Shown here: one piece after another, positions 1,852-24,601 of the stretch | Layout of the letters: each line of letters opens with the position of its first letter | How positions within the stretch are numbered: the first letter of the stretch is position 1 | From: a virus | Lineage: Duplodnaviria > Caudoviricetes | Strand: one strand, 5' to 3' | DNA length: 28,422 bases | IMG/VR virus record: IMGVR_UViG_3300009419_000963 | Location: 1 to 28,422 of that record | Notes under the pieces: model-generated | What the model saw: only the letters and a program-made list of their open reading frames with translations | What the model was told of the DNA's origin: nothing | The model's database searches: none | Translations under genes and position numbers: made by a program

Positions 1852-2523
1852 ATGATACCACAAATTATAGGAGCAGGATTACAAGCGTACAATATGTACA
1901 ATTCTTGGCAAGACAAGAATAAGGCAGAAGCAGCTGCTGCCGAACTAGATAGACAGCCAGTTCCTCAATATACACCAAACTCAAGATTAAATAGTTTCTA
2001 TCAACAAGCAGTTGCTGGTGTTGCTAACCCACAAGGATATACAGGAGCAGAAACAGCAGGATACAACTCTCGCTTAGCTCAAATAATGGCTTCTAGAAAC
2101 TATAATGCTCAAAACATGGCTGGCGGTCAATTGTCAAGAGCTATTGGCGGTATGGGTAACGCTGAATCTATAAACGCTTTAAATCAATTTAGCGGTAACG
2201 ATGCTGCTTTAAGAAGAAGTGCTTATAACGCTGCTATGGGTAGACAACAAAGTGCTATGGGTCAATATCAAAGTTTAGCTAACATGAACACTCAAACAGC
2301 TTTACAAAGAAGATTAATGAAAGAGCAAGGTTTAGGTCAGGCTATTCAAACTAATAAAGCTATGTTTAGCAATAGTCTAAATAATTTAGGTGGAGACTTA
2401 ATGGGCTACGGTATGAATAAAGATATGATGTCTAAAAAAGCTCCTGCTCAAAGTCCAGATTTAAATAGATGGACTAGGTACGCTGACGATATAAATGGAG
2501 TTTCAAACCCTTATTCAGGATAA
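1852..2523 (+). CDS. Putative small ejection/internal virion protein (223 aa)
   Basis: Ala/Gln/Gly/Met-rich helical composition, hydrophobic N-terminus (IIGAGLQA), first gene of a small-medium-giant cluster as in podovirus ejection cassettes. Confidence 0.55.
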   Translation: MIPQIIGAGLQAYNMYNSWQDKNKAEAAAAELDRQPVPQYTPNSRLNSFYQQAVAGVANPQGYTGAETAGYNSRLAQIMASRNYNAQNMAGGQLSRAIGGMGNAESINALNQFSGNDAALRRSAYNAAMGRQQSAMGQYQSLANMNTQTALQRRLMKEQGLGQAIQTNKAMFSNSLNNLGGDLMGYGMNKDMMSKKAPAQSPDLNRWTRYADDINGVSNPYSG

Positions 2524-2525
2524 AA

Positions 2526-3866
2526 ATGGAAGATACTATAGGACTCGCAGGGAGCTTAGGCTTAATAAATAGAGGCGGAGCTGCTTTTGGCGGTAACGTA
2601 TTAACAAAAGCGTCTGGCAAAGAGCTTGAAATGGATGCTACTCAAAAGAGAGACGAGGCAAAAAGATTAGCTAAACAGGCTCAGGAAGAAGAGATGCTAC
2701 TTAAGAGGATAAATCCAACTGGAAAGTTTGATGAGTTGGCTAGGAACAACATGAGAAAAGCCTATGCCGATGTTATAATGAACAAAAAGTATAGAGACCC
2801 AGAAGAAAAATATAATTTTGACCTTTATAAAACTAAACAATTAGAGGCTACTCAAAAAAGAGCTGAGGTAAATGATTTTTTTACTAAAAATAAAACTTTA
2901 GTTCCAAATGATATTCTAGAAGCTTTTAAAAAGAGTGATGTTGCGACCTTAGAACAAAAATCAAAAGACCCTAATACTGGAGTTTATAGAGACCCTAATT
3001 TTGAAGACGTGTATTATATGTCTCCTGATAAAATAATTCCTAAAATTGACACAGAAGATGAGATGAAAAGAGCCGCTTCTGTTATATCTGAAGGTGATTA
3101 TGACGTAAAGAATCAAACTAAAATAGTTAAAAATGGAATAACTTATTTGCAATCATCAGTAAAACCTGAAGTATTAATAAGTGCTGCTCAAAGAGATTTA
3201 AAGAATAAAGTAAATTACGAAAACTTTAAAACTGATTACAAGGCAGAAATAGATAAGACAATGAAAGAAGACCCTAAATTAACAGAATTTACAGCTGCTA
3301 CAAAAGTGTATGCTCAAGAATTAGGTAAGATGGGTAAGAAAGAAGATATTATAAGACCTAGTAAAGGGGTGGTTATAAACAATACCTTTAATTCGACTAG
3401 TGGAGGAGGTTTTGAAAGTAAAAATGTTTCACTATATCCAGAAAAAAGTAAAGATTATCCTGACGGAGTTTTATATCGCTACAATAGAAAAGGAGCTAAG
3501 CCAGATGTATATAATTTAAATGTTGGCTCAAAAGACGATTCTGTAAAAAAATTCACAGAGGTTAATTATGTAATTAGGCTAGACGATGAGACAGGGCTTG
3601 TTATAGGAAAGAGAAAGAGGTTGGGCGATATTGACGATACGCCAGAAAACGAAGCGTATGAAGAGGAAACTAATGACCATAGAAATGTCCCAGCATCAAT
3701 AAAAGTTCCGCTTTCTGTTGTTTATGGAGAATTGCAAATAGATGATAAGACTTGGAAGGCGTTAAAGTCGGAAGGCAAGCCAGCAGTAAAAGCATCAGCG
3801 AATACAGGTGGAGCACCTAAACCAAAACCAGCTTCATCAGGTGGAGCACCAAGACCAAAAAAATAA
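2526..3866 (+). CDS. Putative internal virion/ejection protein (446 aa)
   Basis: Gly-rich N-terminus, charged helical body, duplicated GGAPxPK tail; position in cluster. Confidence 0.5.
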   Translation: MEDTIGLAGSLGLINRGGAAFGGNVLTKASGKELEMDATQKRDEAKRLAKQAQEEEMLLKRINPTGKFDELARNNMRKAYADVIMNKKYRDPEEKYNFDLYKTKQLEATQKRAEVNDFFTKNKTLVPNDILEAFKKSDVATLEQKSKDPNTGVYRDPNFEDVYYMSPDKIIPKIDTEDEMKRAASVISEGDYDVKNQTKIVKNGITYLQSSVKPEVLISAAQRDLKNKVNYENFKTDYKAEIDKTMKEDPKLTEFTAATKVYAQELGKMGKKEDIIRPSKGVVINNTFNSTSGGGFESKNVSLYPEKSKDYPDGVLYRYNRKGAKPDVYNLNVGSKDDSVKKFTEVNYVIRLDDETGLVIGKRKRLGDIDDTPENEAYEEETNDHRNVPASIKVPLSVVYGELQIDDKTWKALKSEGKPAVKASANTGGAPKPKPASSGGAPRPKK

Positions 3867-3878
3867 AAATATTAGGAT

Positions 3879-6800
3879 ATGCCACAAGAACCAGATTACA
3901 CAAGCGAAATATATAAATACCTAGGAACTTTAGATAAAACTTATCAAAAAGAAGTTAGTTTAGATAAATTCAAGGAGTCTATGAAGGATAAAAACTATGC
4001 TTCTGATATTCATTCTTGGATTAGTAGTAAGGACGAAACATTTACTAAAGATGTGCCTTTTGATGATTTTTACGGCTCAATAAATCCAAAAACTCCTGTT
4101 GTTCCATCGTTCTCAACGGACATGAAGAACACAAATACAAATCCTGTAATGAAGAATTCTCCTTTACAGGCAAATGTAGATAAACTTGTAAAAGAGCCTG
4201 TTGCCTTAAAAGTTCCGCAAGAAAATCCTTTTTTAAAGAAGGCTAACGACTTAGCTTGGGATAAAACTCCTTTAGGTCAAGAACAAAAGAAAACAGAAAT
4301 AGTTGGTATGCTTCCTCAGACTCCAGCAAAGCCTACAATGACTGTTAAAAGTGAAGAGGATAAAATAATAGAATCAGGTATAAATGGTCTTCCAGCACTA
4401 TCTAAAATAATGCTGAAGAACAATCCTATATACAATAGAGATTTTAATGATTGGTTAAAAGTAAATCCAAAAGAAGCTCAAAGATTAAATGCTTACGCCA
4501 ATAACAAAGACGTTCAATCTGAATATCAAAAATCTCAAGTTTTTGATAAATTTCAAAAAGATATATTAGCTTCTAGAATTTTAAAGCTTACAGAGCTAGA
4601 AACTATGGGTGCTGGTGAAATTCTTAAACAAAAGAATGATTTATACACTAATATAAATAAGGTATCTGACGACTTAAAGAAGAAACAAACAGAACTTAAC
4701 TTTTATCAAAATACTTTTTTAAAGCAAAGTGGAAATATAGATTTAGTAGATAGAATAAAAGAACTTTCTAATATTTTAAATAAATACGATAAAGAAAAAA
4801 TAACTAATACCTTAACAGGAATAGATGGAGAGCTAAATGCAATAATCAATGAAATAAAATCTATTACAAGTGAAGACAATACTATAGCACAAGAGTATGC
4901 AGCACAGTATACTCAATTATATTCTAGGGCTAAGTCTTTAGAACAAGAAAGAACTAATATTGAAAACGACCCAGAGTTTTTAAAGTATAACGCTGCCATA
5001 AATGAATATAACAATGTTCAAAAAGAAATAAATAATAATATTGGAAACTTAAATAATGACCCTGAATACAAGAAAACAGTAGAAGGGTATAATTCATTAT
5101 TTAATAAGTACAAACAAATTGCAGGAAGTATTGAAGGTCTCAAAAAAGATGACCCTTTAGTTAATGAGTATTTAAGTCTGTCTAAGCAAGTTGCTGATAT
5201 AGACAAAACTTACAAATCTATAAACAGCGGATTTTTTATTAAAGCAGAAAGAGATAGATTACAAAAAGAATCTAATGAAAAAGGTGAGTTTTCTGGTAAA
5301 ATAGTAGGAGTTGTTCAGTCAATACCACAGGCAGTATTTTCATTAGCAGCTGGAGGAATTGATTTAATAAACTCTGTTAACGAAGGAGTTAAAGGTAATA
5401 GCACTAGTTTAACTTACACTACTTTAGATAAAGCAGCTGATTTTTATAACACTCTTGAAAAGGTTACTGGTTTTATAGCTCCAGAAGCTAAATCAATTAA
5501 AGAAAATGGTGACATAAATTGGGCTGACATACCTTACGAAGCATTTCAACAAGTTGGTAATCTTGCTGTTATGGCTGTTACTGGAGGTTCAAGTACTTCA
5601 ATGATGGTTGGCTCTGCTTATTTAATGTCTAGAAAAGGCAGAACAGACGAAGCTGACGAAGCTGGGTTAACAGGAGTTTCAAAAGAAATATATGTAAATG
5701 GGCTATCTTTATTAGAAGGTTTTTCTGAGTTAATAATGCCAGATGCTCAACTATTTACAAGAACAATAAGACAAAAGCTATTAAAAGATGCTGTATTAGC
5801 TCAGACGAAAGGAATTGTGTGGTTTAGAAAGCAGGCAATGGTTACTGTATTGGAAAATATGGGGAAAGAGGACGCTGAAGAACTAATTGTTAAACTTGGA
5901 GAGCTTGGTGCTCAATATGCTAACAATCTAGAACAAGGTAAAAATGTTTTTGACATAAAGAAAAGCAATACTGCAAACGAATATTTAAGAACAATTCTTA
6001 TAGCAGCTCCTTTGGCAGGAATAAGCACAGGGTTAAGTAAGATAGGTGTGCCCAAGAAAGAATTAGATATAGCAAGATTTATTGCTGCTAAAAATATAAC
6101 TCAAACTAGACAAATACTTTCTGATTTGGTTGCTTCAGGAAAAATAACACAACAAAAAGCAGATGAAAATTATAAGCAAATAATTAGATACGCTGCTGTT
6201 CAAAATGTTATGCCTAAAGACATTTCTCCAGAAAAGGCTATTCAATTAGTTCCCCTTATAGAAGAAAACAAAGAACTAGAGCTGCAAATTAAAACTGGCG
6301 GTATTAGCGATATGTTTATCAGTTCTATAAAGGAAAAAATAAAAGAAAATAACGATAAAGCTCAGGCAATATTAGAAACTCCTAGCACTAGAGCTGATAT
6401 AGCACCATCTGCTGAACTAAAAGCATCGGAAGAAATTACAGAAGAAACACCAGCACCTAACACTAAGTTTTATCAAGGTGTTGATTTTAAGGCACAAACA
6501 GGATTGCCTAATGGTGATTACACTGAAGAGCAAGTAAAGGCAGCAAGAGAGGCTAAATTAAAAGAAGCAGGTGTAACGCCAGCAGAAATAGAAAAGACAA
6601 TAAATGCAGAACAAGAAGTTATACCAGCAATTGAAACCCCTGCTGCACCAATTAGCGGTGTTAGTGGTGAGGTACAGGCATCTGGTGATGTAGAAGAGAA
6701 AATAAAAAGCTTGCCAAAAGAAAAGCAAGACGAATTAAAACTTTCTTTGTACAAAGAAGAAATAGCTCAATTAATTAAAAGTGGCAAAATAGAATACAAA

Positions 6801-7979
6801 GATGACGTTACTGGAAAGCCATGCTTAAGATACGGAGGAAGAGGAAATAGCTTTAATAGAGGCAGTGAGTGGGAAATAGTAAAAGATTTAAAAGGGTACA
6901 AGTCTCACGAGCAAGGTGGTGTTGACTTAAAGATAGGGAAAGACGGTGTAAATGTTTTTAGTGGCAAATCTAGTTTTTATGCTAAAGACGGATTATTGTT
7001 TAGCGATGGAGACCCTATAGAAAAAAGAATAGCTCCAACATTTTCTGAAAAAGAATCAAATAAAATTAAACAGGACGAGGCTTTTCTATCAGACTTTATA
7101 AGAAGTCCAAAGTACAGAGAAATGCTTTTAAAGCAATTTGGTGGAGACGAAAAGGCAACAGACGATAACATAGGTAAAAGATTAGAGCAGCTTCAATTGA
7201 CAAAATACGACAATACTGCTATAAATAAAAAAACTGGAGAAGTCGGAAAACCAGGGACTTATGTTAAAACTAGACTGCCTTTTGGTAAAGCTGCTATAGC
7301 TGAAACAATAGACCCTAAAAATAATGAAGATAATTTACAGGGAGACATATTCCTTCCTTCAGATGCTTTTACTTCTGGTTTAGATTTTGAGTCAGTTGGC
7401 TTAGACCCAACTAACTACGGTATGTATCCGTTAAGTGCAAATGTTCCTTTGCATGAGATGACACACAGGTCTTTAGGAGTTAATGATGAAAACATTACGC
7501 CTTACGCAGAAGAAAAAGTAAAAAACATAATGGCTGGCACTTACCCATTTGCAGATAACATGGGCAATAAAATGGGAGTAAATCCAGACTCTGACCCTAC
7601 TGGAATTGGTGCTAAGAATAAAGCAAATGATGATTATTGGCAAAGACCTACGGAAGTTTTAGCAAGAACAAATGCATTTAGAAAGCTGTTGTATGACAAC
7701 GGTGTATACGACCCTAAAACAGAAAGTATAGACAAAGAAAAGTATAACGCATTTAAAGATAAGCTTAACAAAAGATACGATGAGCTTAGCGATAAACCTT
7801 ATAGAAAAATGTCAGAAGAAGAAAAAAAGGAATTAAGAGAAATATCTGATATTAATCAAGGTTTTGGTTACATGAATGATTCTATTTTTGAAAAACAAAA
7901 AGAAGATGACGACAAAAAAAGATTGTGGATGTTAAACAATTTAGTTAAAATAAAAAGGGAGGACGAAAACAATGTTTAA
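3879..7979 (+). CDS. Giant virion cargo protein 1 (1366 aa) with C-terminal HEXXH zincin-like module
   Basis: N-terminal two-fold repeat, long coiled coil, Gly/Ala-rich hydrophobic segments, SHEQGGV motif (6903-6923), LHEMTH (HEMTH at 7452-7466) and downstream PTEVLAR. Confidence 0.6.
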   Translation: MPQEPDYTSEIYKYLGTLDKTYQKEVSLDKFKESMKDKNYASDIHSWISSKDETFTKDVPFDDFYGSINPKTPVVPSFSTDMKNTNTNPVMKNSPLQANVDKLVKEPVALKVPQENPFLKKANDLAWDKTPLGQEQKKTEIVGMLPQTPAKPTMTVKSEEDKIIESGINGLPALSKIMLKNNPIYNRDFNDWLKVNPKEAQRLNAYANNKDVQSEYQKSQVFDKFQKDILASRILKLTELETMGAGEILKQKNDLYTNINKVSDDLKKKQTELNFYQNTFLKQSGNIDLVDRIKELSNILNKYDKEKITNTLTGIDGELNAIINEIKSITSEDNTIAQEYAAQYTQLYSRAKSLEQERTNIENDPEFLKYNAAINEYNNVQKEINNNIGNLNNDPEYKKTVEGYNSLFNKYKQIAGSIEGLKKDDPLVNEYLSLSKQVADIDKTYKSINSGFFIKAERDRLQKESNEKGEFSGKIVGVVQSIPQAVFSLAAGGIDLINSVNEGVKGNSTSLTYTTLDKAADFYNTLEKVTGFIAPEAKSIKENGDINWADIPYEAFQQVGNLAVMAVTGGSSTSMMVGSAYLMSRKGRTDEADEAGLTGVSKEIYVNGLSLLEGFSELIMPDAQLFTRTIRQKLLKDAVLAQTKGIVWFRKQAMVTVLENMGKEDAEELIVKLGELGAQYANNLEQGKNVFDIKKSNTANEYLRTILIAAPLAGISTGLSKIGVPKKELDIARFIAAKNITQTRQILSDLVASGKITQQKADENYKQIIRYAAVQNVMPKDISPEKAIQLVPLIEENKELELQIKTGGISDMFISSIKEKIKENNDKAQAILETPSTRADIAPSAELKASEEITEETPAPNTKFYQGVDFKAQTGLPNGDYTEEQVKAAREAKLKEAGVTPAEIEKTINAEQEVIPAIETPAAPISGVSGEVQASGDVEEKIKSLPKEKQDELKLSLYKEEIAQLIKSGKIEYKDDVTGKPCLRYGGRGNSFNRGSEWEIVKDLKGYKSHEQGGVDLKIGKDGVNVFSGKSSFYAKDGLLFSDGDPIEKRIAPTFSEKESNKIKQDEAFLSDFIRSPKYREMLLKQFGGDEKATDDNIGKRLEQLQLTKYDNTAINKKTGEVGKPGTYVKTRLPFGKAAIAETIDPKNNEDNLQGDIFLPSDAFTSGLDFESVGLDPTNYGMYPLSANVPLHEMTHRSLGVNDENITPYAEEKVKNIMAGTYPFADNMGNKMGVNPDSDPTGIGAKNKANDDYWQRPTEVLARTNAFRKLLYDNGVYDPKTESIDKEKYNAFKDKLNKRYDELSDKPYRKMSEEEKKELREISDINQGFGYMNDSIFEKQKEDDDKKRLWMLNNLVKIKREDENNV

Positions 7980-9141
7980 GAATATAACAGTAGAAGCAGA
8001 AAATAACGAACTAATACTTAAAAATAAAAAAGGAGATTATGTTATTATACCTGCTAATAAAAGAAATTGGGTGAAGTCTAAGATAAAAGAAAAATGTCAC
8101 ACCTGTATTGACTCACTTGTGGAATCTCTTCCAGTAGCAAGTCAATATGCTGAGTTTGGTAGCGTATATTCTGAGGATGATTTTGACCCTGAGGACTTAC
8201 TTCTTAGCAAAGGAAAAGCAAAAAAACAAATTAAAAATGCTGTTGAGTTTAAAAGCGATGAAGAATTGCAAGAGTTTGTTAAAGCTAAAAAGAAGTTAGG
8301 GCACAGGATAAGTTATGCTGACGCAACAAGATATATAGACATGAACAAACTAGAGGGAAAAGATTTATATAAATTTGTTTCAGAGAATGTAAAGCAAGGG
8401 TTTAAAATGAGTAATCCAAAAGAATGGGTCAAAGAAGTTCCTAATAAAGATTACGTTCCCCCAATTACCGAGGCTCAAATATTAAATTATAGAAAGTTTC
8501 AAGAAACATCTGGAAAATTAAAAGCAGACCCTACCTTTGCGGAGTTGAAAACATTTTTAGAAAAAAGTGGATATTCTCCAAATGCAGCTGGATTAAAATC
8601 TGGGGAGATGACTGGAAAAAATATATTAGACATGGCTAAACGCAAAGGAGTTCCGTTAACTAAAAATGAAGATGGTACATATTCTATGATGGATGATGAG
8701 AATACGTTCCTTGATACTAATCAATCATTTGCAAAACAAAGAATTATTCATCCAGACGCAACTTACATGAGCACTCCTTATGTAAAAGGAAATGATATTG
8801 TTAATTATTATAATATGACAGTAGAGCCTAAATATGCAGAAAGAATGCCTACACCGCAAGAGGAAAAAGATTACACAGAAGGAAGATACTTTACAGAAGG
8901 AATGACTCCAGAATTTAATACTGTATATCTTGATTCTTATTTTGACCCAAAAACAGCCAATAGCGAACAGTCTTTAACAATGAAAGCAAACAATGAAGAG
9001 ATGACTCAAAGATATAAAAAGGTAAAAGAAATTGCTGACAATGTTCAGAAATATAAAAACTCTGAAGAATACAAAAAGATAAGGAATGGCAAGCAACAAA
9101 AGATGCCTTTAATCCTGCTAAGTGGGATACAAGAGGTTTAA
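7972..9141 (+). CDS. Hypothetical protein with CxxC motif (389 aa); C-terminus may continue in the -1 frame to 9197
   Basis: Overlaps upstream stop; KCHTCID at residues 41-47; see frameshift finding. Confidence 0.7.
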   Translation: MFKNITVEAENNELILKNKKGDYVIIPANKRNWVKSKIKEKCHTCIDSLVESLPVASQYAEFGSVYSEDDFDPEDLLLSKGKAKKQIKNAVEFKSDEELQEFVKAKKKLGHRISYADATRYIDMNKLEGKDLYKFVSENVKQGFKMSNPKEWVKEVPNKDYVPPITEAQILNYRKFQETSGKLKADPTFAELKTFLEKSGYSPNAAGLKSGEMTGKNILDMAKRKGVPLTKNEDGTYSMMDDENTFLDTNQSFAKQRIIHPDATYMSTPYVKGNDIVNYYNMTVEPKYAERMPTPQEEKDYTEGRYFTEGMTPEFNTVYLDSYFDPKTANSEQSLTMKANNEEMTQRYKKVKEIADNVQKYKNSEEYKKIRNGKQQKMPLILLSGIQEV

Positions 9142-9205
9142 TGACAGGAAAAGAATTTATGGAAGGTTTAAAATACGGAAACAGCACAACACACTAAATT
9201 AAACC

Positions 9206-12200
9206 ATGGCTTGTATATATATAATAAACGGAAAAAAATTTAAGTCTTTAGATAACAAGGCAATAGGCGAGTTACTAAAAGCTAAATTAATGACGGAGAA
9301 TACTCCTAAGACTCTTGCTATGGCTTATGCTGCTGCAAAAGAGGATAATACAAATATAGATTTTGTAAATGCAATAGAAAACCAATTAAATAATAAACAA
9401 AATGATAAAGAAAACATCACAGGGTTACAAAGTAACCAGCGAGAAGGGCAAGAACCTGTCAAAACCCAACCTGTCGAAACCACAGGCGGAGAAAAGATTA
9501 AAACAGGTAGAAATGTTCAAACATATGAAGAAGAAGTAGTTAAACCAATAGAAGCAAAAGAAGAAGGAGCTAAAAAGACAACAAAAGTTACCCCTAAAGA
9601 AGGCGATACCTCAATTACTAAGTCTGCAAGAGGCATGATTCAGAACATGGTCTTTAAAGATGGTGAGTGGCAAATTAAATTTGGTAAGGACTTTACTAAA
9701 GTTGCTAGTTCTGTTCAGAAAGAAGCTCAAGATTCGTTTAACGAAAAGAATGCACCTATTGCTGAGGTTAAGGAACAAGCACCTGTAGTTAAGGAACAAG
9801 CCGCACCTCCAGTAAAAGCTGAAGAAAAACCTGTTAAGGAACAAAAAGAGCCTGTTAAGGAACAAGCCCCTGTAATAGAAGCTCCTAAATTAGAGATGCC
9901 TGTAATAGAGGAAACTGTAACTGAAACACCTGCGGTTGAAGAGGAAGAAGAGCAATACGAACCTATAACAGTATCAGACACTAGTCACGAAAAATTCACC
10001 AAGGACAACGCTGTAGACTACGAAGAAGGTGAAAAGGAAGGCGATAACGGACGTTCTTACACTTACTTAGCATCGGTAACTGTAGAGTTAATAGACGATG
10101 TTAGCGGTGAGGTAATAGGGACAATATCTAAAATAAAAGATGATTACGGAGACGTTAATTGGAGTGCTGAGACTAATGATGGAGACCAAGTAGCTGACGA
10201 GGTTGGCAGTAAAAGCGAGGCTCAACAGGCTCTTGTAGATAAATGGAATAAAGATAAACTAAAAGAGTTTAATAAGGAGAAGGCTAAGGCTGCCAAGGAG
10301 AAGATTAAGGAGGCAGAGAAGGCTAAGAATAAGGCTCAAAAGATTGCTGACAAAGAACAAAAGGCACTTGAAAAGATTAAGGAAAAAGAAGCTAGAAAAA
10401 AGAAGCTAGAAGATTTAGCAAGAGAATCTGGTTTGGATATTTCTGAAGATGATGAATCTCCAGTATTTAGCGTAGAATTAAATGAGAACCTAGCTGAAGA
10501 CCAACAAGATGAGGTTAAGAAAATTGTAGAAGAAGCTATATCAAACCCAGAATTTGCTACATCAGAAACAGTTAATGTTGAAAGCGAGTTGCCAGAAGGA
10601 ATTCCTATGCAACAAATTGTTGTAGATGAGAACGATACAAGACCAGAAGCTCAAATGATGGCACAGTTATCTATACCTCTTGAGTTTATATTTGGTAAGA
10701 GCGTAGGTGTTGGTATGTCTGATACACTAACAACAGGAGAAAGAACAGTTCCTGTAATGGATACTAAAACTGGTGAAATAGCTGATAAAAAAGTTAGAGA
10801 AGAAGGTGGTATTGGATATCCATTCAAGTCTTTAATGGATTTAATAAACGGAACGCTAGAGGCAGGAAAGAAGGCTATGGGATGGGCTGGAGTAGCATTA
10901 GGAGCTTCGTCAGCAATGGTTAACGCAGCAGGCAAAGCAAGTAAGATTACAGGTAAAGAGCTTAAGGCTCATTACTTTAAAAGTCTTAAACTTACAGCTG
11001 AACAAAAGAAAAGAATAGAAGATGCTATCCCAGATAAAAAAGAATATGGAATAGTTATTATATATAAAATGGGTGCTGACGGAATAAAAAGCAACGAAGC
11101 ATATGCTCGTGAAGCTTTTAGACTAATAGACGTGACATTATCGGCAGCAGAAAAAGAAGATTTCTTTAAAAAAGTAAAAGAAAGATTAGCTAAAATTGCA
11201 TGGGAAGATAAAGATATTTATCTTGACTCAATAAAAGGAGCTAAATCATTTTTAGAACTAGAAAATATTTTACATGGCGAAAATTCTAAAATGCCATTAT
11301 TAGTTAAAACCGATATAATAAATAAAGGAATTTTATCTAGTGATAAAACAGAATCTAAGGAAGATAAAAACCCTGTTGGATTTCTTCTTAAAAGCAAAGG
11401 CATAACAGTAGAAAGCGTAGCAGCTAATATAGCAGAGCCTGTAATGGAAGGTATTACTACAGGTCAACCAATGTTAGCAATAGCTATAGACCCAGATTCT
11501 ACGCCATTTGAGGACATAACAAGAAAAAGGCACAAGAACTACCCATTTGGAGTAGAGGGGTTTCCTATTGGTTTATTTCAATCAACAGCTTCTTTTCATA
11601 ATTTAGCTCCAGACATGATGGATGTGTTTATAAAATCAGCAACAACACAAATACAAGAAGTAAAAAATAAAAAAGGAGATAAGGCAAGTTTAGAATTTGA
11701 AAAAACTGGTAAGAAAAAAAATAAGATAATTACTGTTTACGAGAAAGTAAAGACAAAAGAAGGTATTGTAAAAGTTGCTATTAAAGATAAAGATGGCAAT
11801 ATTATAAAAGCTAAAACAGAAGAAGAGATTTGGATTAAGCTAAAAGAATTAGGTTACACCCCTCGTATTAGTATATCTCAAAATCTAGAAGGTAATTTTA
11901 TTGCAGAAGAAGGAAGCGGAACAGAAAAAACACTTATTCTAGATGCTAAAGGGAAAGCAATTACTGCTAAAACAATAGAATTATTATACGCTAAATTAAA
12001 AAAAGCTGGCGTAAAATTAGATAAAGAATTTCAAGCAACTAGATACTCTCAGAAAATTAACGGAGGTACTTTTATTACATTGTTAAAAAAGGCTCAGCAA
12101 GCTTTGACTGAAATATATAAGAACCCTAAATTAACTGCACAGGAAAAACTTGTAAAGCATCTTAGCAAGGCGTTCCCTAGTATAGTTGTAGAAATGAATA

Positions 12201-13222
12201 TTTCTGAATACAATAAGTTACAAGAAGGATTTATTGAAAAGAAGTTATTTACAAAAAGTGGAAAATCTTATGGAGTTGTAAAGGACGGAAGAGTCTATTT
12301 AAATCCAACGTATCTTAACAATAATACTCCTATCCATGAATTTGGTCATATATGGAACGCTGTGGCTAAAAATGCTAGACCTGAGCTATATAAAAAAGGA
12401 GCAGATTTGGTTAAAGACACGAAGTATACTCAAAACATTATCAACAGTCCTTCTTATCAAAAGATTATAAAGCAATTATTTGGCGATAAGGCAATAATAA
12501 AAAACAAAGCTACTGGAAAATTTGAAATAAATACTAAAGCAGAAAACTTTAAAGATATTAATGATTACGTTATTGACGAAGCATTAGCTAGAGCAATTGG
12601 TGATAAAGGAGAATTATTTGTAAACGAGGTACAAAAAAGAAAGTCTTTTCAAGATTGGATGAATCTTCTTTTTGATGTAGTTAAACAAATAGCTGGATTT
12701 CCTACTATCGGTTCTCAAGAATTTCAAGATTTAACTATAGACCAATTTGTAAATGCAGCTGTAAAAGAATTATTAGGAGGCAAGCAGATTAGCGATATTA
12801 CAAGTGATAATCTAGCCAATCTTTCAAAAGAGTCGGCATATGCTAAGTTTAGTGTTACTGATAAAGAAAAAGAATTTAGAAAGAATGCTCTTGCTCAAGG
12901 ATATACCAACAAAGAAATAAATGCTATTCTTAAAAAAGCTAAGAAACCATCTGTAGCTCCTGAAGGTAAAGCAACTGAAAATGAGCCGCCTACGGCAACC
13001 ACAGAGCAAGCAGAATTTATTCCAAACGCTAAGGACATAGAATCATTTAAAAAGATACTAGAAGGAACAACTAGTGATGCTATTAGAATAAACAATGCAA
13101 TAAAAGAAGCTAAAAGCAATCCTAATTTAAATCCTAAGATAGTTGAAATCATGCAAAACTTTAAAGAGCTAAAGAAACAACTTATGGCTAACGTAGAGTT
13201 AACAGAAGACTGTTCTTGGTAG
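9206..13222 (+). CDS. Giant virion cargo protein 2 (1338 aa) with zincin-like metallopeptidase domain typical of phage polyvalent proteins
   Basis: GVVKDGRVYLNP...TPIHEFGHIW (HEFGH at 12335-12349) and DEALARAIG; low-complexity Glu/Lys/Pro linkers; begins MAC, ends EDCSW. Confidence 0.65.
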   Translation: MACIYIINGKKFKSLDNKAIGELLKAKLMTENTPKTLAMAYAAAKEDNTNIDFVNAIENQLNNKQNDKENITGLQSNQREGQEPVKTQPVETTGGEKIKTGRNVQTYEEEVVKPIEAKEEGAKKTTKVTPKEGDTSITKSARGMIQNMVFKDGEWQIKFGKDFTKVASSVQKEAQDSFNEKNAPIAEVKEQAPVVKEQAAPPVKAEEKPVKEQKEPVKEQAPVIEAPKLEMPVIEETVTETPAVEEEEEQYEPITVSDTSHEKFTKDNAVDYEEGEKEGDNGRSYTYLASVTVELIDDVSGEVIGTISKIKDDYGDVNWSAETNDGDQVADEVGSKSEAQQALVDKWNKDKLKEFNKEKAKAAKEKIKEAEKAKNKAQKIADKEQKALEKIKEKEARKKKLEDLARESGLDISEDDESPVFSVELNENLAEDQQDEVKKIVEEAISNPEFATSETVNVESELPEGIPMQQIVVDENDTRPEAQMMAQLSIPLEFIFGKSVGVGMSDTLTTGERTVPVMDTKTGEIADKKVREEGGIGYPFKSLMDLINGTLEAGKKAMGWAGVALGASSAMVNAAGKASKITGKELKAHYFKSLKLTAEQKKRIEDAIPDKKEYGIVIIYKMGADGIKSNEAYAREAFRLIDVTLSAAEKEDFFKKVKERLAKIAWEDKDIYLDSIKGAKSFLELENILHGENSKMPLLVKTDIINKGILSSDKTESKEDKNPVGFLLKSKGITVESVAANIAEPVMEGITTGQPMLAIAIDPDSTPFEDITRKRHKNYPFGVEGFPIGLFQSTASFHNLAPDMMDVFIKSATTQIQEVKNKKGDKASLEFEKTGKKKNKIITVYEKVKTKEGIVKVAIKDKDGNIIKAKTEEEIWIKLKELGYTPRISISQNLEGNFIAEEGSGTEKTLILDAKGKAITAKTIELLYAKLKKAGVKLDKEFQATRYSQKINGGTFITLLKKAQQALTEIYKNPKLTAQEKLVKHLSKAFPSIVVEMNISEYNKLQEGFIEKKLFTKSGKSYGVVKDGRVYLNPTYLNNNTPIHEFGHIWNAVAKNARPELYKKGADLVKDTKYTQNIINSPSYQKIIKQLFGDKAIIKNKATGKFEINTKAENFKDINDYVIDEALARAIGDKGELFVNEVQKRKSFQDWMNLLFDVVKQIAGFPTIGSQEFQDLTIDQFVNAAVKELLGGKQISDITSDNLANLSKESAYAKFSVTDKEKEFRKNALAQGYTNKEINAILKKAKKPSVAPEGKATENEPPTATTEQAEFIPNAKDIESFKKILEGTTSDAIRINNAIKEAKSNPNLNPKIVEIMQNFKELKKQLMANVELTEDCSW
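9402..9539 (+). CDS. Nested +1-frame small basic protein (45 aa) inside the 1338-aa gene
   Basis: Hand translation MIKKTSQGYKVTSEKGKNLSKPNLSKPQAEKRLKQVEMFKHMKKK*; preceded by A-rich leader TTAAATAATAAACAAA; resembles a small phage protein pattern recalled from memory. Confidence 0.55.
   Translation: MIKKTSQGYKVTSEKGKNLSKPNLSKPQAEKRLKQVEMFKHMKKK
9767..9911 (+). repeat. Imperfect coding tandem repeat (VKEQ(A/K) units)
   Basis: GTTAAGGAACAA at 9767, 9788, 9833, 9854; CCTGTAATAGA at 9869 and 9899. Confidence 0.8.
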
Positions 13223-13238
13223 AGTAAATATAAAAACT

Positions 13239-13246
13239 TAAATTTG
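13239..13246 (+). promoter_or_regulatory. Bacteroidota -7 element, near-leaderless for ferritin
   Basis: TAAATTTG 8 nt upstream of ATG 13255; no clear -33 element. Confidence 0.4.
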
Positions 13247-13254
13247 TACACAAT

Positions 13255-13749
13255 ATGAATAAATATTACGAATTATCAGACGAGGCTATGGAGATTATTG
13301 CTCCATTAGCTGAAATAGAATTAGAACAGTCAACTTTCTATAATCAATTGGCTATCACTGCTAACAGATTAGGATTCTTGATGGCGCAGAAATACTTTAA
13401 TCAAGAAGCTATAGAAGAGAAAGAACACTTCATGGGATGGGCTGACTATATCTCTGGAAGGGGTAATAACTACACAGTGCCTGCTATAGGAATAACTAAA
13501 TGTAAGAGTAAGAGCTTGTATGAGCTAATAGAAATGGCTTTGGCTAAAGAGGTTGAGGTTAGTAAGTTATATGCAGAGCAAGGTATGAAGTTGTTCAACG
13601 TAGACCAGTTAGCGTATCAGAAGTTAATTGGTTACTTACAGATTCAAAATGATGCGATAATATTCTACACTGACTTATGTGCAGTATTTGAAAACTTAGA
13701 CAAGGCAGGAGAGTTAACAGCAGAACACTCGTACTTTGAGAATAAATAA
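13255..13749 (+). CDS. Ferritin-like protein (non-heme Ftn family, 164 aa)
   Basis: IELEQSTFY, YFNQEAIEEKEHF, ALAKEVEVSKLY and YLQIQ match the spacing of the Ftn ferroxidase residues E, Y, ExxH, E, Q; length typical of ferritins. Confidence 0.8.
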   Translation: MNKYYELSDEAMEIIAPLAEIELEQSTFYNQLAITANRLGFLMAQKYFNQEAIEEKEHFMGWADYISGRGNNYTVPAIGITKCKSKSLYELIEMALAKEVEVSKLYAEQGMKLFNVDQLAYQKLIGYLQIQNDAIIFYTDLCAVFENLDKAGELTAEHSYFENK

Positions 13750-13760
13750 AGAAATTAAGT

Positions 13761-13829
13761 CAAGGTGTCGTATAAAGGCAATTACGCTAGTTTATAATTA
13801 GTATTGTGGTTCAATTCCATGCCCTATGA
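13761..13829 (+). tRNA. Degenerate tRNA-like element (possible anticodon TAT, or pseudo-tRNA)
   Basis: D arm GTA-TAAAGGCAAT-TAC; anticodon arm CTAG-TTTATAA-TTAG; T arm TGTGG-TTCAATT-CCATG; acceptor CAAGGTG/CCCTATG with two mismatches; no CCA. Confidence 0.5.
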
Positions 13830-13838
13830 CTTTTATCA

Positions 13839-13869
13839 TTTGCTATTTCAAAGATTAGTATTAAATTTG
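13839..13869 (+). promoter_or_regulatory. Consensus Bacteroidota promoter driving a non-coding region
   Basis: TTTG (13839-13842), 19 nt spacer, TAAATTTG (13862-13869). Confidence 0.7.
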
Positions 13870-13952
13870 TGATGTTGTAATGCGGATTCAACGATTTTCA
13901 TTTGTATATTCTTCTCGTTAAAAATATAATAGCCTTTAGATAGGCAATAAAG

Positions 13953-13986
13953 AAAACCTAGATATCCGCATTATCTGGGTTTTTTT
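13953..13986 (+). terminator. Intrinsic terminator or attenuator
   Basis: AAAACCTAGATA-TCCGCAT-TATCTGGGTTTT followed by more Ts. Confidence 0.8.
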
Positions 13987-14290
13987 ATGCCCATCAACTA
14001 AGGTATTGTATGATATTGTATATCTTATAGCTAGGCAACTTAAATGCTACAAACAAAAACAACTATGTAAAAATAATAGCCCCATAAAAATTCCAAGCAA
14101 TGTTTAGCTGACAACTTGGGCGTGAAGTGAAAGAGATATACTTGATGGGGCTGCGTTCCGCATACGCAAGGTACTTAGCAGTGTACCATTTGTTATTTTA
14201 CCGATATCGTTTAGGGCGTTTGCCACTTTTAAGTCCTAAACCAATGCCTGAAGAAACCCTCCCCTTCACGCATATAGCTACTGCTGTATT
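13987..14290 (+). ncRNA. Putative multi-helix structured RNA of unknown class
   Basis: No ORF of 60 aa or more on either strand; eight candidate helices of 5-9 bp found by eye, including long-range and pseudoknot-type pairings. Confidence 0.5.
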
Positions 14291-14318
14291 AAAACTTTAG
14301 ATTTCAATATAAATTCAT

Positions 14319-14326
14319 TAAATTTG
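14319..14326 (+). promoter_or_regulatory. Bacteroidota -7 element upstream of the 1233-aa gene
   Basis: TAAATTTG followed by an A-rich leader to ATG 14353. Confidence 0.5.
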
Positions 14327-14352
14327 CCTAATTATAAAAAATAAAAAAACAA

Positions 14353-17300
14353 ATGGCTTGCTTTGTCACCTACAAAAATAAACGTTATTCTGAACCCGAA
14401 TTCTTCGCATTGCTCGCAGCTGGTGAGTACGATAAGCTAGTAGCTGACGGAAGTTTTGTTCCTAAAAAAATAACTTTGTCTACAGATGCACCTGCTCCAA
14501 CAAAAGGCAAGATGAAAGAGCGCAGTTTAACGAAACAATTCTTAAAGGACAATCCTTCCCTACAACTTTCTGAAGGTGCTATAAATTACGAAGAGATATC
14601 TAATAAGAGTACCGTAGAAGAAGTAATGAATCTAATAGATGAACTTGGCTTAGACGCTTCTGTATACGCTGTTGATGACTGGAAGAATGGAATGAACCTA
14701 CGAGTTAGGTTTACCATGGCTCAAATTTTAATTAAGAAATTATCAAAAGAAGGTAGACTAGACGAAGCTAATGATTTAAGAGAGAGACTAGTAGTTGCTG
14801 CGACAGAGGCTGGACAAGGCATACAAGCATTTGCTATGTTCCCTGCACTTACAGCTGAAGGAGAGCTAAGAAAGATGTTGAAGATGATAAACAACATCAA
14901 CAAGAAAAGGGAGAAAGCAGATAAGAAGCTTACTAAAATAAAAGAAAAGTTTAAACAAGCCAACGAAGACGCTATAAACGAGGCAGTTGAAAACCTAGGA
15001 GGCAAGCCTTCTGAAAAAAGAAAAAAGGCAGCAAGAACCTATGCCGACTACGGTACTAAGAATAAGGTTATTACAAAAGCAAAGTACGAGGAGATGAAAA
15101 AAGCCCTTGCTAATAAAGCTTTTTCAGCAGCTATACCTGTTCAATTAATTCCTATTGGTGTATATCACTTAGAGGCTGGCTCAAGAAAGTTTAAAGAATT
15201 TAGCGAGGCACTTATAGAAGACTTTGGAGATAAGGTAAAACCATACTTAGCTGACCTTTATAAGAAAGCAGCAAAAGAATTAGGTATTCCTGCATCGGAA
15301 ATAGACAGTGAAGCAACTATCTTACAGGAGAACAAAGACAGAAGGGCTAGAGAAGCTAAGAAAAGTGTAAAAGGGGCTCTTAAAGATTTAGGCTTATCTA
15401 TTTCAAAAATAGCCATAGAACACTATACAGTAGTAGATTCTGCTAAAAGAACTCTAGTAGAAAAAATAATGGCAGAAACTGAACTGACTGAAAATGAGGC
15501 TAAAGAATATGCAAAAGCTATAGAAGAAGAGTTTGACAGACTAGCCACAGAAAAGAAAAAGAAAATATTAGACACAGTATTTAATCCTAAAGAAAGAAAG
15601 AAACCTGAGCTAAAGAACTTAGAATCAGAATTATTAAAGCTAACTAATTTAGGTGCATTCAAAGAACAAGACTTAGTAGAAGCATATGCTGATAAAATGG
15701 GTTGGGCTAAGTTATCTCAAGAAGAAATATCAGAAATAGAAAGGCTAGCTTCAATAGTAGAGGAATCTCCAGAAGGAATAAAAAGAGCACAGGCAGTTGA
15801 AGACTTATTAGGATACGAAGCTAAAATAAAAGGAATTCCATTAATGGATGTTGTAACGTCTATATGGTACGCAAATGTTTTATCTGGATTTACTACTCAG
15901 CTAGTTAACGTGATAGCTAACGCAACTCAATTATTGTTCTCTTACGGAGAATCTGCCATAAGAAACCCTAGAACAGGAGTATTTATGGCTAGAGGTATTA
16001 TAAATGGAATAAATAGAGGTATACTAGAAGCAGGGAGTTCATTAAAAACTGGTTATAATCCAATCAGAGGAAGAGTGGAAATTCCTTCTACATTAGAACT
16101 AAAAACATTTAAAGGAGGCAAATACAACCCAGCTAATTATTTAAAGTATGTAAGAAGACTAATGGTAGCATCCGATGTTATTATGTTTGAAACTCAGAAA
16201 GAAATGAGAGCTTATCAGTGGGCTAGAATGTTGGCTGCCAATGAAAATAAATTAGACCCTAGTGTTAAAATTAAACAAAGAGCACTTGACATACTACACG
16301 CAAATGACAGTACTATTCCTGATGCAAAATTAAAAGCATCTGAAGAGGCTCAGCTAGAGATAGATGCGGTAAATACTGAAAATATATCTAGTTCTGAAAA
16401 AGCAAAAAAAATAAAGAACATAAAAACAAACGAAAAAAGAAGAGTATTTGAATTAGTACAACAAAGCAGAGGCTCTGAAATAATGGACGAAAGTAATGCT
16501 TATGCATCTTGGAACACGTTTAATCATCCTGCTTCTGGTTTGCTAGGTGCTGTAGCTAAGAGAGTTAATCAGTTAATAGAAACTAATGGTGTTACTAAAA
16601 TATTTAGATTTGTTGTGCCTTTTACAAATGTAATTGCAAACGTAGCTAACATGGGAATAAACTACACTCCTTGGGGATACATAAGAGCTGCTAGGCAAGG
16701 CTCTGCATTTGGAATACCTAAAGCAGAGTGGGATTCTATGTCACAAATGCAGCAAGACCAATACAGAGTAGAAATAGTAACAAAAGCTACGGTAGGACTG
16801 GCTATGTCGGCTGCTGTTTTAATGTTGACTTTAAAAGGAGATGACGATGATGAGCCTTTACTAGAAATAACAGCAAATGCTACAGGTAAATACAAGAAAA
16901 ATGAGGGTCTTAAAAATGAGGGATGGCAACCATATTCATTTAGAGTTTACAACAAAAAAACCAAAAAATATGGCGATTGGATTTCATATCAGTACAGTCC
17001 TTTATTAGTAATGTTTAGTCTTATTGGAAACCTAAAAGATTATGAAAAGTATAGAAAAGAAAATACAGATGATAACCTTTTAGATAGAATATCTTTCGCT
17101 GCTGTTGGCGCATCAAGAACATTTTTAGACAGTACTTTTTTAGTATCTATAAATTCATTCCTTAAGGCTCTTACAGAAACAGAAGCAGGAGACGCTGTAG
17201 ATGACGCAATGAAATCTATATTTAAAACCGTTAAGGGATTTGTTCTGCCTGCGCTATACACTCAGTCAGCAAGGGAAGTTCAAAGAGCGTTTGACGTGCC

Positions 17301-18054
17301 AGAAAAAGAAGTTGGAACTAGTTTAGTTGCGGAGTTAGTAAGAGACATTCCTGTTGCTAGAAATATGCTAAACGACAGAGTTAATATATGGGGTCAAAGG
17401 TCTATTGCAGACACAGATAAGTTTACATCTAAATCTGAAGATACGGACTTAACCGCAACACTGACAAGTAAAAAAATATTTTTAACAAAACCAAACATAA
17501 AAACAACAAATATTATAGATATAGAAAGCGGCAAGTTTAGAGCAATGACTGATAATGAGTTTTTTAGTTACGCAGAAGAAAGAGGTAAATATTTGTACGA
17601 AACTTTAATAGATAGACTTGAAGATATTAAAGAGATGTCAAATGAAGACGCTCAAAAAGAAGTAAGTTCTATTGTTTCAGATGCATCAAAACTAGCTGAA
17701 GCTAAATCTTCTTTACCTATAGAGTCTTACGAAAGAATAAAAAAAGAAATGAGAAATCAGTATCGTGAAAAGAAAGATGAGTCAAAAGCAAAAAAAGAAG
17801 AAAAAGCTTCTGAAGAAAGAGGAGCTAAAGTAACTCCTGAATATAAAAAAGAAATACAAGATATTAAGAAAAATGACGTTAGTCAGATATCTAGGTTTAT
17901 TGTTTCTAAAATTAAACAAAGCGGAACTAAGTCTAGGGAAATTCGAAAACTTTTAGCATCAGAAAAACTTACAGATGAATATGTAGACATGGTATCTAGT
18001 GCAGTGAATAAAATATTAAAACAACAAGAAGCAGCAAAACCAACAACAAATTAA
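14353..18054 (+). CDS. Giant virion cargo/ejection protein 3 (1233 aa)
   Basis: Begins MAC; C-terminal half with YANVLSGFTTQLVN, FVVPFTNVIAN...YTPWG and GWQPYSFRV segments resembling C-termini of large podovirus ejection/polyvalent proteins. Confidence 0.6.
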   Translation: MACFVTYKNKRYSEPEFFALLAAGEYDKLVADGSFVPKKITLSTDAPAPTKGKMKERSLTKQFLKDNPSLQLSEGAINYEEISNKSTVEEVMNLIDELGLDASVYAVDDWKNGMNLRVRFTMAQILIKKLSKEGRLDEANDLRERLVVAATEAGQGIQAFAMFPALTAEGELRKMLKMINNINKKREKADKKLTKIKEKFKQANEDAINEAVENLGGKPSEKRKKAARTYADYGTKNKVITKAKYEEMKKALANKAFSAAIPVQLIPIGVYHLEAGSRKFKEFSEALIEDFGDKVKPYLADLYKKAAKELGIPASEIDSEATILQENKDRRAREAKKSVKGALKDLGLSISKIAIEHYTVVDSAKRTLVEKIMAETELTENEAKEYAKAIEEEFDRLATEKKKKILDTVFNPKERKKPELKNLESELLKLTNLGAFKEQDLVEAYADKMGWAKLSQEEISEIERLASIVEESPEGIKRAQAVEDLLGYEAKIKGIPLMDVVTSIWYANVLSGFTTQLVNVIANATQLLFSYGESAIRNPRTGVFMARGIINGINRGILEAGSSLKTGYNPIRGRVEIPSTLELKTFKGGKYNPANYLKYVRRLMVASDVIMFETQKEMRAYQWARMLAANENKLDPSVKIKQRALDILHANDSTIPDAKLKASEEAQLEIDAVNTENISSSEKAKKIKNIKTNEKRRVFELVQQSRGSEIMDESNAYASWNTFNHPASGLLGAVAKRVNQLIETNGVTKIFRFVVPFTNVIANVANMGINYTPWGYIRAARQGSAFGIPKAEWDSMSQMQQDQYRVEIVTKATVGLAMSAAVLMLTLKGDDDDEPLLEITANATGKYKKNEGLKNEGWQPYSFRVYNKKTKKYGDWISYQYSPLLVMFSLIGNLKDYEKYRKENTDDNLLDRISFAAVGASRTFLDSTFLVSINSFLKALTETEAGDAVDDAMKSIFKTVKGFVLPALYTQSAREVQRAFDVPEKEVGTSLVAELVRDIPVARNMLNDRVNIWGQRSIADTDKFTSKSEDTDLTATLTSKKIFLTKPNIKTTNIIDIESGKFRAMTDNEFFSYAEERGKYLYETLIDRLEDIKEMSNEDAQKEVSSIVSDASKLAEAKSSLPIESYERIKKEMRNQYREKKDESKAKKEEKASEERGAKVTPEYKKEIQDIKKNDVSQISRFIVSKIKQSGTKSREIRKLLASEKLTDEYVDMVSSAVNKILKQQEAAKPTTN

Positions 18055-22162: not shown

Positions 22163-22555
22163 ATGGCACTAACAGAAAAGGAAAGTAAAGAACTGTCCAA
22201 ATTATCTATGGACTTACAAATTAAGATAAAGGAGTGGAGTAAACTTTTTGATACAGTCAAGAAGAGCCATTCCTTGAGTACCTATCTAACCATCTTTAGA
22301 CAGAGAAAGTCTTGGCAGGATGAGATAGATGAATCTCCATTTACTATCAGAGCTCAAAATGAAGATGAAGATGCAAGAGCACAATCCGAGACGGCAATGA
22401 AGATAATTAAACTTCTTCCTGACTTAGATAGTGACTTAGAAAAGCTATACATCAAGATGACTACTGACGAGAAAACAGAAGTAGAGAGAGTTAAGGCAGG
22501 AGAGGCAGAAAACATTTTAGCTAAACACTTAGAAGCTAATGGCAAAAAAGCATAA
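22163..22555 (+). CDS. Putative terminase small subunit (130 aa)
   Basis: Helical protein immediately upstream of and overlapping the large terminase; positional inference only. Confidence 0.4.
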   Translation: MALTEKESKELSKLSMDLQIKIKEWSKLFDTVKKSHSLSTYLTIFRQRKSWQDEIDESPFTIRAQNEDEDARAQSETAMKIIKLLPDLDSDLEKLYIKMTTDEKTEVERVKAGEAENILAKHLEANGKKA

Positions 22556-24557: not shown

Positions 24558-24563
24558 AAAAAT

Positions 24564-24593
24564 TTTGTAATTCATTTAAATATGTTAATTTTG
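24564..24593 (+). promoter_or_regulatory. Bacteroidota promoter upstream of portal
   Basis: TTTG (24564-24567), 18 nt spacer, TAATTTTG (24586-24593), 8 nt before ATG. Confidence 0.6.
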
Positions 24594-24601
24594 TAGTATA
24601 T

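Follow-up and report, generated by a model that had tools for sequence, protein, structure and literature searches.

The window analysed here is the whole of a 28,422-nucleotide (nt) stretch of a Caudoviricetes contig, IMGVR_UViG_3300009419_000963, in which three plus-strand genes encode giant proteins whose few cysteines are so placed that the end of one protein could be joined to the start of the next. Protein 1, the first member of the putative chain (1366 amino acids (aa), 3879..7979), has no N-terminal cysteine. Protein 2, the middle member (1338 aa, 9206..13222), begins with Met-Ala-Cys (a MAC start; C3, 9212), carries an HEFGH zincin motif at 12335-12349 and ends in a cysteine (a Cys end; C1336, 13211). 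Protein 3, the last member (1233 aa, 14353..18054, with a weak DarB-like match), again has a MAC start (C3, 14359) and no further cysteine. Together with C982 of protein 1 (6822), these are the only four cysteines in the 3,937 residues of the three proteins. A Cys end and the Cys start that follows it are referred to below as the two halves of a clasp, clasp 1 lying between proteins 1 and 2 and clasp 2 between proteins 2 and 3.

The probability that at least three of four cysteines fall within 5 residues of a terminus by chance is 1.8e-6, for a zone width that was picked post hoc. Ejection proteins are Cys-depleted in general, and Cys-free ones are known (PMC11445570). Several genes neighbouring the giants also hold no cysteine at all, and the notable feature is the position of the cysteines, not their low number. 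On recounting, every count and coordinate of the original prediction, including the four cysteines and a CHTC motif at 8095-8106, was reproduced. Of the two Cys ends that it had named, C1336 of protein 2 is indeed terminal, whereas C982 of protein 1 is internal and is followed by 384 residues that hold a YGG motif, a SHEQGG module and a zincin-like tail with the motif HEMTH.

Close relatives carry proteins 1 and 2 in fused form. In locus L003 the two constitute one open reading frame (ORF) of more than 2,691 aa, the sole cysteine of which is third from the end, and the counterpart of protein 3, 85% identical to that of the window, starts with MSC. The same fusion is present in L033 and L037, so that proteins 1 and 2 are fused in all three of these non-identical loci, and residues 1 to ~940 of protein 1 match the N-terminal part of the fused giants. 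Further, the longer homologs of the protein 2 end, obtained in a search that could return longer proteins only, match both proteins 1 and 2 and hold one cysteine each, third from the end (8/8); five of the eight also give Pfam matches to GNAT, methyltransferase, ART-PolyVal or DarA_C. All four homologs of protein 3 hold C3 only, two of them on bodies ~25% identical. Clasp 2 is, on our reading, the standing link of the lineage. Each of the cultured phages whose terminase is related encodes a single giant, with 0, 0, 0 and 1 cysteines (the Elemo giant was seen for 3,394 of ~3,694 aa).

The pairing of a Cys end with a following Cys start recurs in other phage contigs. A SHxGG pattern, which is blind to cysteine, selected 21 loci; removal of the window's own genome, one duplicate and an additional match on an already represented contig left 18. 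All 18 contigs have a cysteine immediately ahead of the module and a Cys start on the next giant, and the complete last members uniformly lack a Cys end (12/12). Of the 82 cysteines in the 85,195 residues of this set, 69 are at junctions, and the polymerase motif of crAss-like phages (DFDxD) is present in most of the loci. Among 45 control ORFs, restricted to those with at least 0.25% Cys, one had a Cys start and three had a Cys end. Eight further contigs, reached by alignment of the CxxC protein described below, all have the internal cysteine; six of them have a standard adjacent start, one has the cysteine at position 11 and one has its start 7.8 kilobases (kb) away. A DNA pattern for the start module gave 33 matches, from which eight in ORFs of at most 84 aa were dropped as chance and one had no upstream partner on its contig. 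The upstream partner ends in Cys in 23 of the 24 evaluable contigs and is of the internal type in the other. Six of these start-selected contigs recur in the other sets, and some belong to phages that are unlike crAss by eye (L040, L064 and L066).

A profile of the start matched 407 clusters among 1.84 billion proteins; among the best 150 of these, 146 match at the protein start and four are repeat proteins. A Cys end is also present in 59 of the 146 start-matching proteins, some of which are just 70-100 aa long and some of which are possibly cut by contig ends. Six proteins of 70-96 aa (P0016, P0039, P0051, P0055, P0075 and P0100) consist of a Cys start, a Cys end and little else and are possible adaptors, though some may be truncated. 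The same layout is found in cultured phages: the giants of phi14:2 are gp67 (C1797), gp66 (C3 and C2179) and gp65 (C3), and those of crAss001 are gp47 (C2339), gp50 (C5, C1334 and C2404) and gp49 (C5), with gp47 on the opposite strand.

Both Cys codons are used at the junctions, and the spacing between neighbouring genes ranges from -7 to 1131 nt. The use of both codons, this wide variation in spacing and the opposite strand of crAss001 gp47 together ruled out that the Cys codons reflect a DNA or RNA signal. Apparent homing endonucleases of the GIY-YIG or HNH type, recognised by eye, often lie exactly between clasp halves (L006, L017, L019, L020, L040, L047, L049, L058 and L066; L003 9183-9956). 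Locus L035 has a further Cys-start giant (17135 onward) ~6 kb downstream of its likely partner, past unrelated tail genes; chain members therefore need not adjoin.

Proteins 1 and 2 of the window are split by a putative inserted cassette of ~2.7 kb (6699..9391, plus strand), the boundaries of which were set by eye from P0007, P0011 and P0012: where the fused relatives have a linker of ~60 residues from the motif ASGDVE to the motif NKQNDKEN, the window has 2.7 kb. All its parts are on the plus strand, in the order Cys end, SHxGG module, zincin-like tail, CxxC gene and new MAC start. The internal Cys-end clasp half of protein 1 (helix, strand, C982) spans 6756..6824 and is followed by a YGG/AxxG motif and the SHxGG module (6825..7019), which is common to crAss-like phages (E 3e-20). 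The tail of protein 1 (7023..7976) is zincin-like by its motifs HEMTH (7452-7466) and EVLAR (7653-7667) and has weak matches to phrog_24249 (E 0.0025) and to an LPD23 cluster (0.89). The CxxC gene (7972..9141) encodes an EAExNE protein of 389 aa with the CHTC motif. In the near-identical locus L001 this ORF has 408 aa, which is probably its length here as well, because the window lacks one A in the run 9073-9077, likely an assembly indel.

The N-terminal 66 aa of the CxxC protein are identical at 52 of 66 positions to a crAss-like homolog, and the remaining parts of the window giants had no match in the crAss-like phages compared. On the simplest reading, clasp 1 likely came with the cassette from a crAss-like phage. 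The guanine-plus-cytosine content, overall and at third codon positions, is nearly alike inside and outside the cassette and gives no transfer date. The cassette occupies different junctions in different phages; L009 has exactly the layout of the window, and in L088 it is flanked by two giants that lack the polymerase motif and lies next to a portal of a different family. The protein 1 tail and the body of the CxxC protein had no match in the loci compared, and sequence searches of both cassette halves against PDB gave nothing significant.

In nearly all cassettes an AxxG-type motif lies 0-20 residues after the internal cysteine, and one is found as well at the close of the SHxGG and EAExNE modules; in crAss001 gp45, segments are, by eye, bounded by motifs of this kind. 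Cleavage at the AxxG/YGG motif that follows C982 might, during maturation, expose this cysteine as a terminus; failing that, the tail of protein 1 would form a branch. The SHxGG and EAExNE modules may likewise be the halves of a gp45-like portal-binding domain, a likeness seen at the motif level and by eye only. Alignment of each half with the portal-bound domain of crAss001 gp45 (425-552) by hhalign gave a probability of <1%, and the protein at the gp45 position in L039 had weak matches to both halves (E 0.005 and 0.31). A second small module with two close cysteines, probably an internal disulfide, recurs in cassette passengers (L011, L018, L007, L012, L013 and L016) and at residues 390-398 of crAss001 gp45 (L027).

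Overall, we consider it likely that the four cysteines of the window belong to two pairs of short docking modules that couple the end of a cargo protein with its successor's start, with a disulfide as the probable seal, and that the three proteins are packaged and ejected in the manner of the relatives' single giant. A solved precedent comes from the cyanopodophage A4 (Anabaena phage A-4L), in which the sole cysteine of the 1717-aa gp27 is C1715, third from the end, and the sole cysteine of gp26 is C5. Cryo-electron microscopy identified this pair as a disulfide in the virion, where a cleft of gp26 receives the C-terminal helix of gp27 as part of a pentameric ring, with the disulfide adding stability (PMC12002296). 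The same structure lends itself to the view that the link is real but only a staple, which stabilises folded cargo in the head while the proteins exit independently, in an order that does not depend on a chain, and disulfides also stabilise the crAss001 tail. However, a staple need not sit at the termini, follow gene order, appear exactly at splits and vanish at fusions; further, chains of five members exist, as do two-ended proteins of 70-100 aa, some of the short ones maybe cut by contig ends. We therefore regard a mere staple as unlikely, though it is the alternative that fares best.

The original prediction had left the seal open between a disulfide and a shared metal and had noted an adjacent CxxC protein. 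The disulfide has its precedent in A4, whereas a required role of the CxxC protein found no support: 17 of the 26 homologs have the motif, yet the nine that lack it still have intact chains, and no CxxC protein was seen beside the giants of phi14:2, crAss001 or A4. An obligatory catalyst was rejected on the same grounds, and the CxxC motif is probably dispensable, a local trait of a passenger protein. For comparison with thiol-disulfide oxidoreductases of thioredoxin fold, its domain was modelled (70 aa, pLDDT 70); the model has three strands and two helices with the CxxC between the helices, and a fold search with it against 48,161 chains gave a best Z of 3.8. Upstream of the linked pair of A4, gp28 (L032 25321-28497) has only two cysteines, which form a CxxC near its C-terminus (1036 and 1039).

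The halves of clasp 2 are separated by a ferritin-like gene (13255..13749, plus strand; PF00210; EEKEH motif at 13414-13428), which the original prediction had missed; this gene and ~600 nt separate proteins 2 and 3. In 10 distinct contigs from different lineages (window, L003, L033, L037, L035, L050, L012, L013, L092 and L095), a ferritin-like gene lies among the chain members or next to them, an association that is biased because the loci were centred on the block; any part of the ferritin in oxidising the clasp would be hypothetical. A metal bridge, in which the two cysteines meet at a shared Zn or Fe, with the CxxC protein perhaps completing the site or the ferritin providing the metal, would give both genes a place, the CxxC gene lying inside junction 1 here and in 17 of the 26 homologous cassettes. 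Against it, chains persist in the nine cassettes without CxxC, most junctions have neither a CxxC nor a ferritin gene, the modules hold no other invariant ligand and A4 shows a disulfide. A bridging metal is thus very improbable.

Because protein 2 has a cysteine at both ends and ejection proteins are Cys-poor anyway, each protein might instead close upon itself or pair with its own copies, or the cysteines might simply be tolerated at disordered ends. First members have no Cys start and last members no Cys end, which argues against self-pairing, and the modules of neighbouring proteins co-vary. Across 59 non-redundant junctions, the similarity between ends correlated with that between the next starts (Mantel rho 0.27), a value reached in 0/2000 global and 0/2000 within-locus shuffles. 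Ends of the helix-strand-Cys type precede window-type starts in 17 of 26 cases and other starts in 3 of 33; the end of protein 1, a variant with a short insertion, falls outside this simple end pattern. Among 30 middle proteins, the type of end goes with the start of the next protein downstream (p 4e-4) but shows no such link to the protein's own start (p 0.44), which argues against self-cyclisation. The cysteine is also invariant within otherwise divergent ends, for rows that were chosen on that cysteine. We accordingly have little faith in self-pairing or mere tolerance. When the end of protein 2 was modelled in complex with the start of protein 3 (45+45 aa, 32-row alignments), the score was 0.24 against a mark of 0.32 and the controls did not fold; the outcome carries no weight either way on binding.

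Finally, peptide ligation or trans-splicing, which would join the proteins by a peptide bond and for which one could cite the fused polyproteins of crAss-like phages and the cysteines on both sides of the junction, reminiscent of intein chemistry, is scarcely credible given that a Pfam search found no Hint domain, the start cysteine is at position 3-5 and not 1, residues often follow the end cysteine, and phi14:2 gp66 shows polymerase activity when produced recombinantly as a full-length chain of its own.

Returning to the end-to-start clasp, we propose that a helix-strand-Cys end would dock non-covalently on a MAC hairpin-helix start during assembly in the reducing cytoplasm. The bond would form on oxidation after lysis, keep the partly unfolded proteins joined on their way through tail and periplasm, and be reduced in the cytoplasm of the next host. 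The cassette, of probable crAss-like derivation, would split a fused gene and leave the chain unbroken because it carries both clasp halves. Where a clasp joins the split proteins, a split gene would therefore behave as a fused one, and endonucleases, ferritins and the cassette could insert between the halves. The pairing rule, its loss on fusion, its gain at a split, the co-variation of partners and the inserted cassette can all be read from the sequences themselves. The modules proposed by the original prediction have held up as paired and conserved, being lost in fused homologs, kept in distant phages and co-varying with the neighbour's module; so has its view that accessory genes insert at the junctions, the cassette at junction 1 and the ferritin-like gene at junction 2.

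Several points weigh against this reading. C982 is internal, and the cleavage that would free it is deduced from a motif only. The direction of the split, like that of the transfer, is presumed, and split relatives of protein 2 went uncounted in the search for longer homologs. The end and start classes were defined after inspection of the data, and co-variation can be exaggerated where neighbouring genes are inherited together. A4 offers an analogy of the rule, with a homology that the profiles do not support, and its bond staples a folded ring. Lastly, for this phage the bond, the virion location and the order of ejection are predictions from sequence.

More tentatively, and short of an even chance in our estimation, unrelated podophage lineages may share an orthogonal code of cysteine plugs and sockets that orders injected proteins. 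The 2.7-kb unit would then be a mobile "protein-level intron," carrying both clasp halves, that splits an essential giant gene and adds passenger effectors with the ejected chain intact, and that passed from crAss-like phages to this lineage as well as to a third (L088, with its other portal type).

The rest of the window is consistent with a phage outside the crAss type. The terminase large subunit and portal are encoded at 22539..26731 (plus strand). The terminase matches 85 phage records; among the matches listed, at ~26-29% identity and mainly from Flavobacterium Elemovirus and Cellulophaga phages, are Elemovirus, Pachyviridae, Pervagoviridae and one unclassified podovirus, and crAss-type phages are not among them. 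No match was obtained to the stretches of crAss001 and phi14:2 compared, which may exclude their terminase. Because its terminase matches mainly phages of Flavobacterium and Cellulophaga, we infer a Bacteroidota host. The DFDxD polymerase motif is absent from the three giants and from L003, within the 28 kb of genome covered; the giants are therefore not the RNA polymerase block of crAss-like phages. The zincin-like motifs of proteins 1 and 2 (HEMTH and HEFGH) are each followed by a downstream ExxAR, a likeness at the motif level with no Pfam match. Two Cys-free genes (223 and 446 aa; 1852..3866, plus strand) precede the giants in what gene order suggests is the position of small ejection proteins, and neither had a sequence match to the cultured phages compared. 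A degenerate tRNA-like element follows the ferritin-like gene at 13761-13829 (Rfam tRNA, 20 bits with a gathering score of 29, E 0.2; none by ARAGORN). From their position and Cys depletion, we infer that the giants are packaged in the virion and injected.

Among known systems, the phages with a related terminase (Elemovirus, phi18:3, phi38:1 and ctfjg026) resemble the window in having two small genes and then a giant that is Cys-free or nearly so, but differ in that the giant is unsplit and has no clasp; homology of their giants to those of the window was not detected by sequence search. Split inteins, with their Hint domain, Cys1 and terminal His-Asn, are unlike the clasped giants, for which Pfam finds no Hint match and the start cysteine is at position 3-5. 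Polyvalent proteins are likewise giant multi-domain proteins encoded near portal and terminase, with zincin motifs and with homologs that swap effector domains; the paper that describes them deals with single polypeptides and proteolysis and not with the re-joining of split genes (PMC5512222), and neither cysteine nor disulfide occurs in its main text.

The cargo block of the Crassvirales is closer, consisting of three giants with the same first, middle and last pattern of terminal cysteines, although the window giants have no DFDxD motif and its terminase is Elemovirus-like. The giants gp67-gp66-gp65 of phi14:2 and gp47-gp50-gp49 of crAss001 are virion cargo by mass spectrometry (PMC10172136), and in some phages the Crassvirales cargo giants are fused into one polyprotein (10.1101/2020.03.07.982082); the available parts of these two sources make no mention of the terminal cysteines. 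For crAss001, the order of cargo exit is said there to be likely set by packing and interactions, with no more detail in the part available (PMC10172136). How megadaltons of phage cargo exit in order through a narrow tail is an open question that the clasp addresses, and a redox-reversible end-to-end clasp is directly testable in the cultured phi14:2 and crAss001. It would also explain the free splitting, fusing and insertion seen in these giant genes, and short, orthogonal, reducible protein connectors would be useful as tools.

The original prediction knew of no description of such a link. The A4 link had in fact been described, whereas a general account of the rule was not found in the literature searched, which left subscription journals largely outside, nor by term look-ups in PMC7886860, PMC10136315 and PMC5512222. 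Because the window-type profiles do not match the A4 modules (profiles A2 and A3 against the A-4L proteins, no match at E < 0.5), A4 serves as an analogy only. Its pre-ejectosome differs from the window in having a single link, which the available part of the source treats as stabilising and not as an instance of a general rule, and in having no inserted cassette. The window adds a phage that is not of the crAss type, a split gene whose relatives are fused, a mobile double-clasp cassette and a partner code. Like the window, A4 has adjacent giant ejection genes with a sole cysteine near the end of one and the start of the next, a pattern that proteins 2 and 3 share, whereas for proteins 1 and 2 the cysteine is internal. 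In conclusion, the feature is real and widespread, has one solved precedent and works like the A4 link.

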